The notes beneath the pieces were generated by a model, which saw nothing but the letters and a program-made list of their open reading frames with translations, searched no databases and was not told the DNA's origin. A stretch of DNA of 6,387 nt from a virus: positions 1 through 6,387 of IMG/VR virus record IMGVR_UViG_3300022758_000234; one strand, written 5' to 3'. Below, piece by piece: positions 1 to 6,387 of this stretch. The translations under genes and the position numbers were made by a program. Each line of letters opens with the position of its first letter. Within the stretch, counting starts at the first letter, position 1.

Positions 1-127
1 TATTTCCGCTTCAATTCGAGACGTTTGTATAGCCGCTTAACACGTGGCACCAGGCGGTCGGAAAAATATCGAGGCAATAAAAGTTGTATAAGCTTCCCAC
101 GTTTATTTATGAACCGATAAAAAAAAA
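1..127. repeat. Terminal direct repeat (copy 1). It is identical to 6261-6387 and marks the circular junction / assembly over-run of a 6,260-nt circle.
   Basis: Positions 1-127 and 6261-6387 are identical base for base (tatttccgcttcaattcgag ... gaaccgataaaaaaaaa). The repeat lies inside the rep coding frame. Confidence 0.95.
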
Positions 128-980
128 TTTTGTCGTACAGAACTTTAAATTCTTCAAAATCCTGAACGTTCTCTATCTGCTGGCGCAGGTCGGGGTGAAG
201 CTTCATGAGCTTCTCAAAATACGCATTACCAACCCCTTTTGACACTACACGCGGAGGCTTCTGAACATAGCCAGCTTGAACATAGGGCGTTTGTTCATCA
301 AGATGTTTACAAACATACTTTGCCACATATTCAATCGTAGTGTCAGTACTTGCACGGTCGGACAAATCAATCTCTTTTATGTCAATCGCAGCGTCTTTAC
401 AATTGACGTCAGAAAAATGCGAAAGCCAATCGTTATATATTAAATCCTTGACCTGAGCAAAATCCTCATTTAAAAATATCAAACCGTGCCAGTGCGGCCT
501 GAACGTCAAAGGGCCATACTCGCCCTGAATAAAATATTTAATATCAAGCGTTTTATTAAAATGATACTGATATTGACGACGAACACGCTTTATATGCGCT
601 GAAATATCCGACTTCGAAAAAATGGGAACAAAAACGCCAGTATCAACATATTTTTCGGGGTTTAAATACCTATTAAATACATTTTCATGCGAAAGATTAT
701 ACTGCAAAGACTTCGAGGGATGCTCGTAAAAGTACTTTTTTAAAATATTGAAGAAGTCGCAATCATTGTTTACGAACTTCACATGTTTATACGAAAGAAA
801 TGTATTTGGATACTTATATGTAACAAAGAGCATATATCTATGCTGCTTAGATTCTTCCCTCAGGCGAACGAACCAAGAATTTGTTTGCTGGCGAGAACAT
901 TCGACGCAATCACCGCAAGGCCGATATATCAACCGACCTTGCGTATCACGCCTATTTGTGGGTACAGGATGCAAACACAT
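1..980 (-). CDS. Replication initiation protein (Microviridae VP4/Rep, HUH rolling-circle endonuclease). This is the N-terminal 327 codons. The gene starts at ATG 978-980 and continues past position 1 across the circular junction, with its C-terminal part at 5867..6260.
   Basis: Hand translation of the minus strand in the frame of ORF 5867..6337 is open from 1001 down to 1. The upstream stop is TAA (plus tta, 1002-1004) and the first ATG is at 978-980. The product begins MCLHPVPTNRRDTQGRLIYRPCGDCVECSRQQTNSWFVRL. It contains FVTYKY (810-827, RCR motif I-like), RPHWHGLIF (474-500, HUH motif), YVAKYVCK (306-329, YxxKY catalytic tyrosines) and SKGVGNAYF. The ORF track misses it because it crosses the window edge. 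Confidence 0.93.
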   Translation of the reverse strand, partial: MCLHPVPTNRRDTQGRLIYRPCGDCVECSRQQTNSWFVRLREESKQHRYMLFVTYKYPNTFLSYKHVKFVNNDCDFFNILKKYFYEHPSKSLQYNLSHENVFNRYLNPEKYVDTGVFVPIFSKSDISAHIKRVRRQYQYHFNKTLDIKYFIQGEYGPLTFRPHWHGLIFLNEDFAQVKDLIYNDWLSHFSDVNCKDAAIDIKEIDLSDRASTDTTIEYVAKYVCKHLDEQTPYVQAGYVQKPPRVVSKGVGNAYFEKLMKLHPDLRQQIENVQDFEEFKVLYDKIFFYRFINKRGKLIQLLLPRYFSDRLVPRVKRLYKRLELKRK

Positions 981-981
981 A

Positions 982-1536
982 TCAAAAAACCTTTGAAAAT
1001 TTTAGAATATTAAGAATAATACTCCTCATTGTATAATAAGTAGTCATAATCAACTCAGCAATATCTGATGTTAAGACTGCCGTATCTTTAAAAATTTTAA
1101 CATAGTCCAACAAATTATCGCAATCAGCAGAATAATCATCTTTGAAATCATCATCGACATTAATGTTCAATTCCGTAAGGGAAAGAGAGTGTCCGAACAG
1201 AATCCGAAAATCAGTATTAACAAAAAACTCTTGCAAAGCATCAAAATAAATCTTCGGCTCCAAAAAAACTTTCATAAACAAGGAAGTAAAAAACCCAGAG
1301 GACATAGCATCATATTTCGACATTGTTTGGTAATAAAGACGCTTATCTTCAACGTCAAAGTAAACAACGCAAACCGCGTTATCCGAGGAAGGACAACAAT
1401 CATAAGGATTATTGACCACAAAAAAACGCAAGGGACGAACAAAATCACGTTGTTTATCATTGGTTGACAAACGAAATTGATTTTTAATGGTATCAGTAAA
1501 ATCAACGGTACTTTTAAAATCGACTAATTGTTTCAT
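982..1536 (-). CDS. Hypothetical protein, 184 aa. It lies between VP2 and Rep, where several gokushoviruses carry the internal scaffolding protein VP3, so a tentative VP3-like assignment by position only.
   Basis: Complete ORF on the same strand as all other genes. Its stop (TGA at 982-984) lies 1 nt from the Rep start codon. It fills the gap between VP2 and Rep. It contains acidic stretches (NINVDDDFKDDYSADCDNLLDY) compatible with a scaffolding role. No motif is recognised by eye. Confidence 0.75.
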   Translation of the reverse strand: MKQLVDFKSTVDFTDTIKNQFRLSTNDKQRDFVRPLRFFVVNNPYDCCPSSDNAVCVVYFDVEDKRLYYQTMSKYDAMSSGFFTSLFMKVFLEPKIYFDALQEFFVNTDFRILFGHSLSLTELNINVDDDFKDDYSADCDNLLDYVKIFKDTAVLTSDIAELIMTTYYTMRSIILNILKFSKVF

Positions 1537-1634
1537 AATGTTAATTTTTGTTAATGGATAAAAGTGTTTTTTTTTCTATGTGTCAAAGATAAGAATTAAT
1601 GTGTACACAAACAAATTAAAAGTGTAAAAAAATC

Positions 1635-1650
1635 AAAAAAAATTTTTTTT
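1635..1650. repeat. A8T8 perfect palindrome in the VP2 / 184-aa intergenic region. Nearby are a T9 run (1567-1575) and an A7 run (1626-1632).
   Basis: aaaaaaaatttttttt is read directly. It lies in a 137-nt homopolymer-rich non-coding region, 1537-1673. Confidence 0.6.
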
Positions 1651-1673
1651 CCACTTCGCGGAAATTAAAATAC

Positions 1674-3008
1674 TCATTTCGCCAAAGGCGTTTGTGTTAC
1701 AGTTGTTGTACTACCACCAGTCATAACACCTTGTGAATCAAAATTTGTTGTCGTCGTTGTACCTGTATAACCCCCTGAGCGACCAATATTAGAATACGGA
1801 AACACAATGCCCGTAACAGCGTTGGCCACATTAACAAGATTTCCAAAAATACAATCAACAATCGAAAGTTTACGATGTGTCTCCATTGAGCGCACCTGCT
1901 GTTTAAGATTATTAACCTGCTCATTAGGTCCTCCTGCATCGAGCCACGCGTCAACTTGCGCCTCCATTGCCTTGAAATAATCGGAAGAGGAACTATAATG
2001 CTGGGCTTGGGTGTCCATAAGACGCTTTTGAAAATCAAGCGTTTCTCGAAGTGTTTCAGCCTGCCAATTCGTAAGAGTGGTTTGGGCAATAGACTGAGCA
2101 ATCTGAAAGTCTTTCTGCTCAATATCTTTCTTAATCCAAGAAATTTTCTTATTATTTACAGAAATTACAGAATCATTTACCTGCATACGAGACAGAGACT
2201 CATCAATAGCCTGACGACGTTCCTCTATCCATGTACCATCTTTGGCCAAACCCATTTGATTTTGAGCAGCACGATAATCGGCGTCAATAGAAGCGATACG
2301 CGCTTGTGCTTCTTTCAACTGAGAATCTACACGCGTATTTTCTTTGAGTTCGTCATAATAATGCTCTTGCGAACGCTTCAAATGAGCATCGCGATACTCA
2401 TCATAAATACGAGAAACAGAACCTATACCGTCCGTAAACATACCAAGCATCTCCAACAACATTTGACCGCCGGGAAGATTGGAAATACCAGCGCCCATAT
2501 CACCAACAGAAGCAGAAGCAGCAGAAGCGGCGCCAGAGGTAGCACCAGAACCAGCAGAAGCGGCAGCACCATTCATTGAAGTAGGACCTTGTGCACCGCC
2601 AGTCATAGCCAAAGCGGGATTCAAGCCAGCTTCCGAATATTGCCGCACCATTGCCTCAGGTGATTGATATTCGTTATACATTTCTTCTTGCCAAAAACGT
2701 TGTTTCTCGGCCTCAGCAGCATTAAACGCTTGCGAATTAGCTTGCATTTCTGCATTAAAAGCTTGCGCGTCCTCCTGCATAGCCCTATTAAACTCCATTT
2801 GTTCAAGCATTGTTTTGTAATTATACTGGGCTTGAAAAGCATCGGCAGCCGAAATACCTGCACCTGATTCGTACTCGTCATAAGAACGAGCCAAAGAACC
2901 GTTAATCAAATCCGTAAGCCAGCCAGAAGAAGACGAAAGGTTTCGCGTTATACGATGTGTTGCGTTAGCATAGGCGTTATTACGCCTTTTCCGTGATAAT
3001 ATTCCCAT
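1674..3008 (-). CDS. VP2-like DNA pilot / minor capsid protein, 444 aa.
   Basis: Large ORF immediately downstream of the capsid-proximal small genes. It has a basic N-terminus (MGILSRKRRNN), long Q/E/A-rich predicted coiled-coil segments, a Gly/Ala/Ser low-complexity tract and a Thr/Gly-rich C-terminus (GYTGTTTTTNFDSQGVMTGGSTTT). This composition and position are typical of Microviridae VP2 / H-type pilot proteins. Confidence 0.8.
   Translation of the reverse strand: MGILSRKRRNNAYANATHRITRNLSSSSGWLTDLINGSLARSYDEYESGAGISAADAFQAQYNYKTMLEQMEFNRAMQEDAQAFNAEMQANSQAFNAAEAEKQRFWQEEMYNEYQSPEAMVRQYSEAGLNPALAMTGGAQGPTSMNGAAASAGSGATSGAASAASASVGDMGAGISNLPGGQMLLEMLGMFTDGIGSVSRIYDEYRDAHLKRSQEHYYDELKENTRVDSQLKEAQARIASIDADYRAAQNQMGLAKDGTWIEERRQAIDESLSRMQVNDSVISVNNKKISWIKKDIEQKDFQIAQSIAQTTLTNWQAETLRETLDFQKRLMDTQAQHYSSSSDYFKAMEAQVDAWLDAGGPNEQVNNLKQQVRSMETHRKLSIVDCIFGNLVNVANAVTGIVFPYSNIGRSGGYTGTTTTTNFDSQGVMTGGSTTTVTQTPLAK
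2505..2570 (-). repeat. Imperfect tandem repeat (gcagaagc / cagcagaagcggc units) inside VP2, encoding a Gly/Ala/Ser low-complexity linker (GAAASAGSGATSGAASAASAS).
   Basis: gcagaagc occurs at 2512-2519, 2521-2528 and 2554-2561. cagcagaagcggc occurs at 2519-2531 and 2552-2564. Confidence 0.6.
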
Positions 3009-3010
3009 AA

Positions 3011-3289
3011 CTACCTACGTCTTACAGGTTCATCTTCACCAAACAAAAAATCGAAGAAAGAGAGTACGGTAGAAGCAATAGCGGAAATTGGACTTGAAGC
3101 AGAAGCGAGATTAATCATTTGCTGCATCATATTCTTACTTTGTTCGTCCTCATTAGAGGCCAACTCCTCGGCATTGGACATAACAGACTGAGAGGTTAAT
3201 TGCTGCATAGCCTGCATATTTTGCTGAACGTAAGAAGAAGACATTTTAAAGAACGAAGAAACACCATTTGTCATAAATTGAGATGCCAT
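3011..3289 (-). CDS. Hypothetical small protein, 92 aa, Q/M/S-rich and acidic, with a C-terminal hydrophobic helix ISAIASTVLSFFDFLF. It is translationally coupled to VP2.
   Basis: Complete ORF on the coding strand. Its stop at 3011-3013 lies 2 nt upstream of the VP2 ATG (3006-3008). It fills otherwise non-coding space. No family is recognised. Confidence 0.6.
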   Translation of the reverse strand: MASQFMTNGVSSFFKMSSSYVQQNMQAMQQLTSQSVMSNAEELASNEDEQSKNMMQQMINLASASSPISAIASTVLSFFDFLFGEDEPVRRR

Positions 3290-3332
3290 ATTTTCATATT
3301 TTAAGGATTGAACATTTTTATTTGTGTGTCAA

Positions 3333-3410
3333 TCCGCCGTACCATAGCGAGATACGGCGGAGTGATTGACGGTTGACCGTCAATCACCACCCGGCGACGA
3401 CGTCGCCGTA
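3333..3410. promoter_or_regulatory. GC-rich cluster of three adjacent perfect hairpins. It is a candidate complementary-strand origin (primase / RNA polymerase recognition structure) or another cis-acting structure.
   Basis: Hairpin 1: stem 3333-3341 (tccgccgta) pairs with 3353-3361 (tacggcgga), with an 11-nt loop. Hairpin 2: 3362-3373 (gtgattgacggt) pairs with 3376-3387 (accgtcaatcac), a 12-bp arm with a 2-nt centre. Hairpin 3: 3392-3399 (cggcgacg) pairs with 3401-3408 (cgtcgccg), centred on 3400. GC content is far above the rest of the genome. GGTTGAC-like words recur at 3371, 3411 and 3436. Confidence 0.5.
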
Positions 3411-3742
3411 GGTTGACTTGCGAGACCAGAACCAGGTTGATTGGAAGCGGCTGTACCGACATTTGATTGTAAACCGATATTAAGAGATTTAAAGCCCTTA
3501 GCAATCATCATCAAATCAAAATCGTTATTCACGCGAAAACCAACTTGTGAGATTTCCTTCAAATCATTATAAACAACATCGGTAACATCGTTAGGTATTG
3601 TTTGCGTTTTAATAATTTGGCCAATATCTACACCAAGACCTGGCAAAGTAACACCAAGCGTACACGGAGGAATTGTATTACGACCATAAAAAGTACGAGA
3701 AGCACGTTTTTTTATAATTTTTAGCTCTTTATCTGTTTTCAT
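3380..3742 (-). CDS. Hypothetical protein, 120 aa. Its C-terminal ~25 aa (AASNQPGSGLASQPTATSSPGGD) are encoded by the GC-rich hairpin cluster.
   Basis: Complete ORF on the coding strand between VP1 and the 92-aa gene, with ATG at 3740-3742. No His residues and no recognisable motif. The low-complexity tail suggests the 3' end is shaped by DNA structure rather than by protein constraint. Confidence 0.55.
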   Translation of the reverse strand: MKTDKELKIIKKRASRTFYGRNTIPPCTLGVTLPGLGVDIGQIIKTQTIPNDVTDVVYNDLKEISQVGFRVNNDFDLMMIAKGFKSLNIGLQSNVGTAASNQPGSGLASQPTATSSPGGD

Positions 3743-3882
3743 AACAAACTATTTAATGGATTGATTACTTGAATTATCGTTCTCTCGTTTTTCTTGACGT
3801 TTCTTTCTCAACCAGCGGACAGAATCCACAATCCAAGAGATAAAGAAGAATACGCCCTTTAAAATCTTTTTTGTTTGCTCTT

Positions 3883-5682
3883 TCATAACTGACGACCTCT
3901 ATATGGAACATTTTCTTTATGCGTATTTTTCAAATCACCAAGTGTAGGTATTACGTACTCAGCAAGAGGTGTAACTTTCTTGAATGAGAAGAAGAAGTCA
4001 GCCCAAGTAATAGCTCCCAAAGCATATTCGGCAGCTGTAACATAATCCAGCTCGTCAGGAGCTATTTCAACAAAAGACTTGCCGAGTTGAACGGACGAGA
4101 AATAACGTTGAAGAGTAAAAGCACTCAAATCCTCGGTAATCTGCAATCTACCGTGTACTTCATCATCATGGTATTTATATTCTGCATACTGCTGCTGATA
4201 GCCAAAAATGTCAGTACCAAAATATGAAACAGGATTTGTAACAGTAGAACCAGTTATGGCCAACTGAGGGTCAAGTATGAGCTCGGCATTATAAATAGGT
4301 TGTTCACCTAAGCCTTGCAACAGAGGATTTGCAAAATCGGAAATTTCAGAGCGAGAAAGATAACGACGAATACCAGTGCCATAATAAGCATGAGGGACAA
4401 CAGAAGCAATAACCATAAGGAAGCCATGCTCGGTTGACGTAAATGTATCAAACAAACTATCTTTCCCATAGCCATGCGTAGAACCCGCACGAGAACCGAC
4501 AGCACCATTAAAAGGATTTCGATTGTATGTTTCACTTTCGGCGGAATATGTAGAGTTAGAAACACCTTTCGTATAAAGACCAAATTTTGAAGAACCTAAG
4601 AAAAGAGGTCTATCCAACAAAGCGTCAGAAGGTAAAATGCCCCACGTAGCTTTTATCTGATCAGAATAACGCATACCAGCTATATTATTACGCTCCAACC
4701 AACGCTGCAAAACGTTCGCAGAACGTATTTGCGGTATGGTCAAATTACTTGCTCCGTCAGGTATTGCAATAGAAGCAGGAGACATAGCCGCCTGGGGATA
4801 AAACGCGGCCGTAGTATAATAATCTTTTTCCCAACAACGTTGGTGCAAAGAAAAAATCGAGGGAGTTTCGGTGTTAATACTTGATGTTGGCGCATTCCCG
4901 TGAAAAACAAGCGTAGAAGTCTGCCGCATTTGGAAATACTGCTCAGGAGTATTTTGGTTCTCCCAATAATGAGGGCCAGTGATACCTATAATGTTGTAGG
5001 TATTAACAACAGAATCCGTTTCCTGCCGAGAGGTATAAGGCAAAAACGAAACAGAATAATTTTCAGTAGATGTAGGCCGTACAAAAAGCGGTGTAATAAT
5101 ATTCGGATTTCGATACCAATCATCGTAAATTTTGTGATAGGCCATAAACGGCAAAATGTTGGGAACAAGTAAAAAACCGTCCGAAACTTGCTCAGCATTT
5201 TGCGTCGTCTTAAATCCGACATAATCCGCAAGAGAAGAAGCACCCCACATTGGCGAACCTGAATCCTTTTTAACAGAAGAACCAGCCAACTCATACTGAG
5301 CAATCGCAGCATCATAATTCTCGGACTTAAAGGTACGAACAACAGAGGGCAAATGAGTAGGCCTATAAACCTCAGGCGAAAATGGATTATAAACAGGCAT
5401 TGTCATGAAATCCTGCCAACCAGACCAGAGAATGCGATTCGGAACAAAAAACGCCTCCAAACGCATATCGATACGGCCATAAAACTCAGTAGCCATAGGT
5501 GGCAGTTGAGCTTCACACATGTAGCCAAGTGAATATGTTTCATTCGGCAGAACCTCTTCTACAAGAACGGGTATCAATGTTCCCGTCGTCATAGACAAAA
5601 CATTTTCAAATGACAAATCCATACCCGAACGATTGGGAATATCGACGGGTTGCTGCTTAAAAATTTTTGATAAATGTGCCAT
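3883..5682 (-). CDS. Major capsid protein VP1 (Microviridae F-type jelly-roll capsid), 599 aa.
   Basis: The N-terminal region matches the gokushovirus VP1 signature: DLSFENVLSMTTGTLIPVLVEEVLPNETYSL ... RLEAFFVPNRILWSGWQDF (compare S.F..S....G.LIP...EVLPGDT.SL ... FFVP.R..W). The size is typical of microviral VP1. ATG at 5680-5682 and TGA at 3883-3885. Confidence 0.95.
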   Translation of the reverse strand: MAHLSKIFKQQPVDIPNRSGMDLSFENVLSMTTGTLIPVLVEEVLPNETYSLGYMCEAQLPPMATEFYGRIDMRLEAFFVPNRILWSGWQDFMTMPVYNPFSPEVYRPTHLPSVVRTFKSENYDAAIAQYELAGSSVKKDSGSPMWGASSLADYVGFKTTQNAEQVSDGFLLVPNILPFMAYHKIYDDWYRNPNIITPLFVRPTSTENYSVSFLPYTSRQETDSVVNTYNIIGITGPHYWENQNTPEQYFQMRQTSTLVFHGNAPTSSINTETPSIFSLHQRCWEKDYYTTAAFYPQAAMSPASIAIPDGASNLTIPQIRSANVLQRWLERNNIAGMRYSDQIKATWGILPSDALLDRPLFLGSSKFGLYTKGVSNSTYSAESETYNRNPFNGAVGSRAGSTHGYGKDSLFDTFTSTEHGFLMVIASVVPHAYYGTGIRRYLSRSEISDFANPLLQGLGEQPIYNAELILDPQLAITGSTVTNPVSYFGTDIFGYQQQYAEYKYHDDEVHGRLQITEDLSAFTLQRYFSSVQLGKSFVEIAPDELDYVTAAEYALGAITWADFFFSFKKVTPLAEYVIPTLGDLKNTHKENVPYRGRQL

Positions 5683-5750
5683 AATATTTTTATTGGTTAA
5701 ACATTGAATATCGCAAAAGAAGAACTCATATTCGTTAATCCCAAATGGAT

Positions 5751-5799
5751 ATTATCAAATAATGTTAAAATAAAGCGTGATTTAACATTATTTAATAAT
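5751..5799. promoter_or_regulatory. AT-rich stem-loop in the Rep-VP1 intergenic region: a 13-bp perfect stem extending to 19 bp with one mismatch, and an 11-nt loop ataaagcgtga.
   Basis: 5757-5769 (aaataatgttaaa) is the exact reverse complement of 5781-5793 (tttaacattattt). The flanking 5751-5755 pairs with 5795-5799. An outer 11-bp inverted repeat, 5691-5701 (tattggttaaa) / 5812-5822 (tttaaccaata), brackets it. Confidence 0.5.
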
Positions 5800-5866
5800 C
5801 CTACATTTGTTTTTAACCAATATTAGATTCTATAAAGGCGATACAATGACAAACCAAAAAAAAACA

Positions 5867-6387
5867 TTAATAGGCTAGAAGTGAGGAAACCGTACACTCG
5901 TCGAAAACAGCTCGGGTAACAGAATAGTAGGTGTTCGGCTTGGCTCGTCGTAAACGTACGCGAGCAGACGCTTCATAAAATTTCTTGTAAAGCGAATCCA
6001 CCTCACACGGCGACGCATCAACCAATTCTGAGGCCGACTTTCCAAGTAACTCAGAAAATTTTTCCTCAAAAAGTATTCGTAAGTAACAATCCTTAAATCG
6101 AACAAATTTTGCCGCAGTATCGCGGATATAAGAAGAACAATTAACCGATCGAAAACGGGCAAAGTCTTTAACTTCGTGTCCATATTTTAAAACTTTATTA
6201 TTGAAAGATGAAATGCGAGAGGATATAATATTCACAACATATTCGGCGCCGTCATACACATATTTCCGCTTCAATTCGAGACGTTTGTATAGCCGCTTAA
6301 CACGTGGCACCAGGCGGTCGGAAAAATATCGAGGCAATAAAAGTTGTATAAGCTTCCCACGTTTATTTATGAACCGATAAAAAAAAA
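5867..6387 (-). CDS. Replication initiation protein VP4/Rep, C-terminal part of the same gene as 1..980. Positions 6261-6387 duplicate 1-127. The stop is TAA at 5867-5869. The full protein is 457 aa over 1,374 nt of the 6,260-nt circle.
   Basis: ORF 5867..6337 in the track starts at a TTG only because the frame is open to the window end. The same frame continues uninterrupted into 127->1 of the first repeat copy. The C-terminal 170 aa are basic (RLVPRVKRLYKRLELKRKY, ARVRLRRAKP) and contain no Met. Confidence 0.9.
   Translation of the reverse strand, partial: FFYRFINKRGKLIQLLLPRYFSDRLVPRVKRLYKRLELKRKYVYDGAEYVVNIISSRISSFNNKVLKYGHEVKDFARFRSVNCSSYIRDTAAKFVRFKDCYLRILFEEKFSELLGKSASELVDASPCEVDSLYKKFYEASARVRLRRAKPNTYYSVTRAVFDECTVSSLLAY
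6261..6387. repeat. Terminal direct repeat (copy 2), identical to 1-127.
   Basis: Same as above. Confidence 0.95.

Follow-up and report, generated by a model that had tools for sequence, protein, structure and literature searches.

The window, the whole stretch of 6,387 nucleotides (nt) analysed here (positions 1 to 6,387 of IMG/VR virus record IMGVR_UViG_3300022758_000234), very probably holds a complete, circular microvirus genome of 6,260 nt that belongs to Family 11 of the Kirchberger classification, comes from the human gut, probably has a Bacteroidales host, and is ordinary in size and gene content for its clade. As such, the genome adds little, being one more member of an abundant human-gut microvirus species or genus, inside a family-level group known since 2022. 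It is useful as a well-resolved reference for the clade, for which it supplies a map of eight genes, one of them an overprinted gene that gene callers miss. The points that most deserve specialist attention are clade-level features: a T-run in the replication gene (Rep), the overprinted orf102, the orf184 cassette and a conserved hairpin.

A probable closed circle with its genes on one strand

Bases 1-127 of the window are identical (100%) to bases 6261-6387, and the two copies of this direct repeat, which has no strand, are spaced 6,260 nt apart, giving a unit of 6,260 nt. The repeat, already reported in an earlier note on this DNA as a sign of a closed circle, is best described as the overlap left by an assembler on closing a circular contig, and both it and the unit length are confirmed. 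Rep is complete only when read across the 6260|1 junction. In nine relatives with contigs broken elsewhere, the part of Rep on both sides of that junction (residues 284-457) forms a single unbroken alignment. The contigs of relatives also carry terminal overlaps, of 121, 119, 99, 55 or 51 nt, lengths that look like k-mers, and the 127 nt of the window are of the same kind. Thus, circularity is supported beyond the repeat alone.

A terminal repeat could also arise without a free circle, from a tandem array or from an integrated prophage. More distant relatives do integrate (see below), and one close relative (L123, 9,668 nt, VP1 94% identical) is a head-to-tail concatemer of 1.5 units. However, concatemers are expected from circular templates, and L123 fits a circular template or rolling-circle amplification and does not fit integration. 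The window has no bacterial flank, 127 nt is a common maximum assembler k-mer, the contigs of relatives, broken at other points, end in overlaps of other k-mer sizes, and no contig of the clade extends beyond unit length with host DNA attached. An array or prophage origin of the repeat is therefore highly improbable.

When the window is read as a circle, its minus strand carries every non-nested open reading frame (ORF) of more than 110 codons, and eight genes can be mapped: VP1, orf45, orf120, orf92, VP2, orf184, Rep and orf102. Judged by profile matches to an F-family capsid protein (VP1), a pilot protein (VP2) and an HUH Rep, the genome is that of a microvirus. The earlier note had put these three genes on a single strand, with lengths of 599 amino acids (aa) for VP1, 444 aa for VP2 and 457 aa for Rep, and all of this was correct. 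The major capsid protein VP1 (3883..5682, minus strand) matches the Pfam family Phage_F (PF02305; 2.2e-48, 165.7 bits against a cut-off of 25) and phrog_514 (1e-82), and it matches 3,605 phage records, of which all those listed are microviruses. In a comparison of ten genomes, the source of the gene-level dN/dS values given here, its ratio of non-synonymous to synonymous divergence (dN/dS) is 0.23. The DNA pilot protein VP2 (1674..3008, minus strand; dN/dS 0.20) matches ten PHROG pilot or minor-tail families, the best at 2.2e-11.

The remaining recognizable gene, Rep (VP4), occupies 1..980 on the minus strand (residues 1-327) and continues over the circle junction into 5867..6260 (residues 327-457, the C-terminal part, contiguous in relatives). 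It matches PF23343 (REP_ORF2-G2P; 4.1e-9, 37 bits against a cut-off of 27.8) and phrog_942 (1.2e-27), and dN/dS in its N-terminal part is 0.056. Its motifs include a CGDCVEC cysteine motif (897-917), the HUH motif HWHGLIF (474-494, residues 163-169) and the two-tyrosine (YxxKY) motif YVAKYVCK (306-329, residues 218-225).

Family, size and host

VP1 is 31-50% identical, over 97-100% coverage, to the VP1 proteins of more than 15 GenBank phage genomes. The best of these matches (42-50%) are faecal microviruses of pig, cattle, macaque, chimpanzee and rodents, with genomes of 5.4-6.1 kilobases (kb), and the genomes matched at 32-50% include MG945578, MG945522, MG945460, MG945414, MG945133, MG945606, MG945264, MG945281, MG945345 and others. 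In the rows consulted of supplementary file 2 of Kirchberger, Martinez and Ochman (2022, mBio 13:e00588-22, PMC9239249), the six VP1 matches looked up are assigned to Family 11, and about 10 further matches likewise; two similar genomes, MT135367 and Sigmofec virus OM869567, lie outside those rows. That paper links genomes into a family when VP1 identity is at least 30% over at least 80% coverage, and equates Gokushovirinae with Family 3 and Alpavirinae with Family 5. The window VP1 lies within these limits relative to Family 11. It falls outside them relative to Family 3, with 25.8% identity to phiMH2K, 25.3% to Chp2, and 25% to SpV4 over 205 aa only. The gene order of suborder III, VP1-VP2-VP4, is present in the window and its relatives. 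On these comparisons the genome is placed in a human-gut clade within Family 11, which neighbours Alpavirinae rather than Gokushovirinae, and it is not a gokushovirus.

The window's clade shares with the rest of Family 11 the order Rep-VP1-small ORFs-VP2, an orf120 homologue downstream of VP1, an origin in the mammalian gut (genomes of 5.2-6.2 kb), and the circumstance that profile searches recognise only VP1, VP2 and VP4. It differs in that its VP1 is at most 50% identical to any of theirs and is longer (599 versus roughly 516-549 aa), and it has four additional genes, orf92, orf45, orf102 and the cassette gene orf184, for which tblastn found no counterpart in more distant relatives. The likeness to Alpavirinae (Krupovic and Forterre 2011; Roux et al. 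2012; Family 5 of Kirchberger et al.) consists of the human gut, the Bacteroidales link, temperate relatives, unassigned ORFs downstream of VP1, and again VP1, VP2 and VP4 as the only recognisable products; in contrast, the nearest named relatives of the window are filed under Family 11, and no integration has been seen in its clade.

The earlier note had called the genome gokushovirus-like, large for that type of layout, probably a member of an undescribed or little-described lineage and a carrier of extra genes absent from the canonical arrangement. There is a case for such a view. The INPHARED collection holds no VP1 closer than 50%, the genome is larger than those of Chp2, phiMH2K and SpV4 (4.4-4.6 kb), and orf184 occupies the place that VP3 has in Chp2 and phiMH2K. 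Gokushoviruses also resemble the window in having homologous VP1, VP2 and VP4 genes that share a strand and follow one another as VP1-VP2-(gene)-VP4. However, the window VP2 is more than twice as long as theirs, the genome is 1.7 kb larger, and VP1 identity to the type members, at about 25%, is under the 30% family threshold. VP2 and Rep match those type members in short cores only; VP2, for example, is 41% identical over 75 aa to Vp2 of phiMH2K by BLASTP. No small ORF matched gokushovirus VP3 (PF09675) or VP5 in Pfam at E<=0.1, with BLASTP also negative, and no homologue of ORF8 was found among the window proteins by Pfam or by BLASTP against gokushovirus type members. When profiles were compared by hhalign with gokushovirus VP3 (a two-sequence profile), the orf184 family reached a probability of 0.7% and the orf120 family 0.2%.

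The claims of large size and novelty are not supported by comparison with the clade. A large protein collection contains VP1s that are 92-96% identical to that of the window and some thirty more at 71-77%, nearly all on contigs of 6.23-6.45 kb; IMG/VR and a metagenome collection agree with this, several of their records being labelled human gut. At NCBI, the Third Party Annotation (TPA) record DAE94503.1, "Microviridae sp.", has a VP1 that is 76% identical. Three contigs, L130-L132, which were reached via the orf184 allele of the window, are 97.4-97.7% identical to it at the nucleotide level, L130 (97.6%) over 98% of its length, so the window's species has been assembled from other samples too. 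The lineage has thus been repeatedly sampled. As for size, the median microvirus genome is 5,078 nt and the largest 8.3 kb according to Kirchberger et al. (PMC9239249), Family 12 genomes measure 6.4-6.95 kb, and the window is at the top of an older "usual" range of 4.3-6.3 kb, as given in the abstract of PMC9865509. By the classical description of the family 6.26 kb is therefore a high value, but it is normal within the clade and no record. Nor are the extra genes foreign to the usual arrangement: the relatives normally have small ORFs in the interval from VP1 to VP2, and orf120 is family-wide. With its closest named genomes in Family 11 and contigs of the same species and genus abundant, a large gokushovirus-type genome of a scarcely described lineage is very improbable.

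The probable host of this Family 11 genome is suggested by prophage relatives. Relatives whose VP1 is 44-55% identical lie among bacterial genes such as Omp85, LptF/G, TGT and HU-HIG on contigs of 27-202 kb. The closest of these prophages, L019 (VP1 55%), is an insertion of about 6.3 kb (between L019 7540-7700 and 13800-13960) located between a tsaB-like gene and lptF/G, with a direct repeat of 25-26 nt on either side of it (TATTTGAC(C)ATAATACCGATTATCGG). The corresponding empty site, with flanks 97.5% identical and the phage absent, occurs in an uncultured Bacteroidales metagenome-assembled genome (MAG; L096 6359-6388). A wobble-tolerant pattern made from the tgt gene that flanks L019 found 49 matches in GTDB, all 49 in Bacteroidales; a scan of GTDB genomes with the VP1 alignment confirmed no prophage locus. 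The L019 insertion and the empty-site MAG together show that relatives are temperate phages of Bacteroidales, and by extension the host of the window is probably a gut Bacteroidales bacterium. The L019 prophage encodes no integrase, and it is opened between VP2 and Rep, the place of orf184 in the window.

If phiX174 and the gokushoviruses are a guide, the strand that is packaged would have the sense of the window's minus strand. In the infection cycle proposed for this genome, VP2 would pilot the DNA into the cell, and Rep, as an HUH nuclease with a YxxKY motif, would nick the replicative form to begin rolling-circle replication. VP1 would form a T=1 capsid with hypervariable surface loops, the hairpin upstream of VP1 would act in single-stranded DNA, and orf45, orf120, orf92, orf184 and orf102 might supply scaffolding, DNA-binding and lysis functions.

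A number of points weigh against the account given so far. Five of the eight genes have no assigned function, and the AlphaFold2 models of Rep and orf184 have mean confidence scores (predicted local distance difference test) of 52 (from a six-sequence alignment) and 37 (two sequences), too low for fold searches. The window is one assembler-closed contig, and we infer the circularity and single-strandedness of its genome from the assembly. Placement in Family 11 was made by pairwise identity and a published table rather than by phylogeny. In the 2026 NCBI taxonomy the former family Microviridae has become the class Microviricetes, split into orders that include Alpavirales; the genera of one of its families, Pikkuviridae, are apparently named after pig, macaque, yak and elk, and our equation of Pikkuviridae with Family 11 is a guess made from these genus names alone. 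A literature search found no paper on Alpavirales. Finally, no prophage, CRISPR (clustered regularly interspaced short palindromic repeats) or other host link was found for the window's own clade, whose contigs are free unit-length circles or the concatemer, and the attachment-site motif of L019 does not occur in the window. Host and lifestyle are therefore read across from the relatives.

The T-run in Rep and the overprinted orf102

A slippery run occupies Rep codons 284-288 (119..131, minus strand), with AAAA at 131..128 followed by T9 at 127..119 (and again at 6379-6387). In the window the gene stays in frame, and codons 283-288 read GAC AAA ATT TTT TTT TAT. At 15 of the 16 other junctions first examined, drawn from a variety of studies and assemblers, GAC AAG T9 ACC stands in its place and the frame is split (the relatives compared were L004-L007, L022-L030, L041, L066 and L073). 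The split Rep meets a stop at the fourth codon after the run (the seventh after AAG), leaving a protein of 290 aa, and the remaining 170 codons lie in the -1 frame. Besides the window, in-frame genotypes are found in L130-L132 (AAAA-T9), in L128 and L129 (AAA-T10), and in L029, P0155 and P0161 (T10). A Rep cluster of 420 members is represented by the 290-aa form; among 15 of its members listed, nine are 290 aa long, two correspond to the downstream piece (167 aa), and two are in-frame proteins of 457 aa that contain DKFFFYRF (T10).

Because AAAA-T9 is common to L130-L132, the window allele is a real and inherited genotype that keeps Rep in frame, and a single T>A substitution separates it from T10. 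An in-frame Rep is the ancestral state: the run is an in-frame T8 in L072, and each of the distant relatives encodes Rep in one ORF of 424-456 aa.

The downstream part of the split genes carries the marks of a translated sequence. In the split genomes only, 8 of the 10 variable sites in the first 10 codons past the run fall at third positions of the -1 frame (dN 0.033, dS 0.42). The -1 frame is closed 3-4 codons upstream of the run, leaving an overlap of the two frames of about 10 codons, and five split genomes (L005, L006, L007, L028 and L030) have no start codon before codon +14. The C-terminal part of Rep outside the overlap with orf102 has a dN/dS of about 0.10. Purifying selection from the first codon onward, together with the closed upstream frame, argues that the downstream part is translated by entry into the -1 frame at the run. 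The T-run of the split relatives is therefore a candidate recoding or contingency site. A -1 slip on U_UUU_UUU, or one extra transcribed U, yields exactly the T10-type protein, and switching of the DNA between T9 and T10 may provide a third route to full-length Rep.

Recoding at homopolymers, by -1 ribosomal frameshifting or transcriptional slippage, is familiar from dnaX and from the transposases of insertion sequence (IS) elements. The relatives of the window resemble these systems in having a U_UUU_UUU heptamer within T9, a short two-frame overlap and a downstream frame under purifying selection. The likeness ends there, since no stimulatory structure was found in the relatives and the window itself is in frame. 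No stimulatory RNA structure or Shine-Dalgarno-like element was found at the run, the folds of the 60 nt downstream being weak (-2.4 to -6.8 kcal/mol) and differing between genomes. This lack makes transcriptional slippage, for which no such element is required, or unaided slippage a better fit than classical programmed frameshifting. The searchable literature contained no report of frameshifting, slippage or recoding in a microvirus Rep.

Our tentative reading, to which we give close to an even chance, is that the T-run lets the clade make both a 290-aa HUH core (from T9) and the 457-aa full-length Rep (by frameshifting, slippage or T9<->T10 switching), and that the sub-lineage of the window, with its type D orf184 (see below), is locked in frame, AAA-T10 having become AAAA-T9 through one T>A substitution. 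Together with orf102, such a site would form a previously unreported layer of expression in microviruses other than phiX. If recoding is true, the replication protein would exist in two isoforms, comparable to the A and A* proteins of phiX174 but reached by different means.

A substantial possibility, somewhat below an even one, is that the split Rep reflects sequencing or assembly error at a homopolymer, or else a spreading loss of function in which the C-terminal part is dispensable or has its own start. Homopolymers of 9-10 nt are error-prone, and Kirchberger et al. (PMC9239249) patched split genes in MAGs as assembly frameshifts. The T-run is itself unsurprising where TTT makes up 75% of Phe codons, no conserved RNA structure lies downstream, in-frame T10 variants coexist with the split forms, and about half of the split genomes have a GTG or ATG three codons past the run. 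Against these readings stand the recurrence of T9 at 15 of 16 junctions across studies and assemblers, the dominance of the 290-aa form in its cluster, a -1 frame that is selected from the run onward and closed upstream, the five split genomes that lack an early start, and the low dN/dS of the non-overlapped C-terminal part. The coexistence of in-frame and split Rep genes also suggests that some of the "frameshift errors" patched as a matter of routine in microvirus MAGs may be biological.

The terminal overlap of the window ends at the last base of the run (127), and the next base differs from that of the split relatives; the probability of such a coincidence is about 1/6,260. An overlap that ends at the slip site suggests a branch in the de Bruijn graph caused by co-occurring variants, and hence a mixed population in the sample.

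The second unusual feature of Rep is orf102 (5875..6183, minus strand), an overprinted gene for a basic protein (isoelectric point, pI, 10.9) in the +1 frame of its 3' part. The frame is open at the same place in 10 of 10 genomes. Over the last 100 codons of Rep, synonymous divergence is 0.05, versus 0.32 just upstream, and variation in the overlap is highest at the third codon position of orf102, with dN/dS of 0.21 in the orf102 frame versus 1.04 in the Rep frame. With a Rep that is 57% identical, the sister lineage L072 retains orf102 in the same frame with 48% aa identity. From the codon-position pattern, the dN/dS values and the conservation in L072, we conclude that orf102 is coding and a real gene, one that gene callers leave uncalled.

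There are partial precedents for this arrangement. In phiMH2K an ORF (orfN) is annotated within the 3' half of Vp4, much as orf102 lies in Rep; no sequence similarity was found between the two. In phiX174, genes B and K are overprinted inside A, and E inside D. The likeness to phiX174 consists of a small gene that overlaps the 3' part of the replication gene in a different frame; phiX174 differs in having no sequence similarity to orf102, and in that its second A product, A*, is made by internal initiation and not by a change of frame.

Small genes, mosaicism and the conserved hairpin

Between VP1 and VP2, where the earlier note had recognised two genes, lie the expected ORFs of 120 and 92 aa and a third, a 45-codon ORF at 3886..3749. 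Every small ORF except orf184 has a dN/dS of 0.05-0.24, and the codon-phase profiles agree, the three ORFs between VP1 and VP2 varying mostly at their third positions. Searches of the small ORFs against Pfam, PHROGs, NCBIfam and the PDB sequences gave nothing above noise.

The largest of the three, orf120 (3380..3742, minus strand; dN/dS 0.15), belongs to a wider family of homologues that are directly comparable in position. Homologues with 36-45% identity occupy the same place in L001-L003, L008-L010, L016, L019 and L031, and all relatives examined, prophages among them, have the gene downstream of VP1, at identities as low as 36%. It is therefore canonical for the family and no extra. A scaffolding role is a guess from position only.

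Upstream of VP2 lies orf92 (3011..3289, minus strand), whose stop overlaps the VP2 start. It encodes an acidic protein rich in Q, M and S that is 95-99% identical in relatives, with a dN/dS of 0.054 and a third-position bias of 0.140 versus 0.02. The probable small gene orf45 (3749..3886, minus strand; dN/dS 0.24) has a start that overlaps the VP1 stop and a weak third-position bias (0.158 versus 0.09). Its product (MKEQTKKILKGVFFFISWIVDSVRWLRKKRQ...; pI 10.4) is basic at the N-terminus and in the tail, with the hydrophobic core GVFFFISWIV between them, from which one may guess at a small membrane protein, a lysis protein or a DNA-binding protein. The gene is called in relatives and has a clearly conserved counterpart in the sister lineage L072, in which gene callers place similar-sized ORFs at the positions of both orf92 and orf45. 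For neither gene did tblastn find a homologue beyond the window's clade.

The variable cassette gene orf184 (982..1536, minus strand) encodes an acidic orphan protein and lies between VP2 and Rep. Across 18 genomes its alleles fall into four types, of 191, 197, 195 and 184/178 aa, with 82-96% identity within types and 23-39% between them. The distribution of the types is independent of VP1 similarity, and orf184 can be only 23-33% identical in genomes whose other proteins are 90-99% identical. The window carries type D, which is also found in L072 (59% identical) and in the same-species contigs. An exhaustive HMMER search recovered relatives in four representative clusters among 1.84 billion, and a word-index search one 90% cluster. 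This allele pattern suggests recombinational swapping or diversifying selection, and the cassette behaves like an arms-race or recombination hot spot. Some alleles have a short LPxxVRxxF-like resemblance to VP3; it has no statistical support, and homology to VP3 was rejected as a candidate.

Variation is not confined to this cassette. VP1 has hypervariable stretches at about 5158-5383, 4858-5083 and 4033-4333, where the pairwise difference is 0.28-0.41 versus 0.21 gene-wide, and the genome alignment reveals another variable zone in the N-terminal part of VP2. In L025, VP2 is only 57% identical to that of the window, with Rep, orf92 and orf120 at 88-98%. This divergent VP2 argues that mosaicism is general, and recombination among co-circulating genomes appears to be frequent. 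Across the clade, VP1 identity (72-96%) is uncoupled from the identity of VP2 and Rep.

The Rep-VP1 intergenic region (5683-5866, 184 nt) is conserved like coding sequence, with a pairwise difference of 0.062, and contains a long conserved hairpin (inverted repeat I2; 5742..5809, minus strand). The hairpin has 26 base pairs, three of which show compensatory double changes across 11 distinct sequences, L072 included, and its fold as single-stranded DNA is -14.3 kcal/mol (z = -5.4). It is a candidate for an element of single-stranded DNA and could mark an origin of replication; judged from other ssDNA phages, its likeliest role is that of a complementary-strand origin, and it may instead be a plus-strand origin or a regulatory site. 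Its core, TGTTAAA...TTTAACA, also occurs in the more distant relatives L011 and L012. A search of the window against Rfam gave no match. One arm, ATAATGTTAAAT, resembles the XerD arm of Escherichia coli dif; the spacing is wrong, and the comparison was dropped.

The Bacteroides promoter motif TAnnTTTG (-7) is not enriched in the window (4 copies versus 8 expected); one copy lies 48 nt upstream of orf184. The spacer between VP2 and orf184 (1537-1673) contains A8, T8, T7 and A9 runs, and a further T9 follows directly after the Rep stop (5855-5863), with a length of T7 to T9 among relatives.

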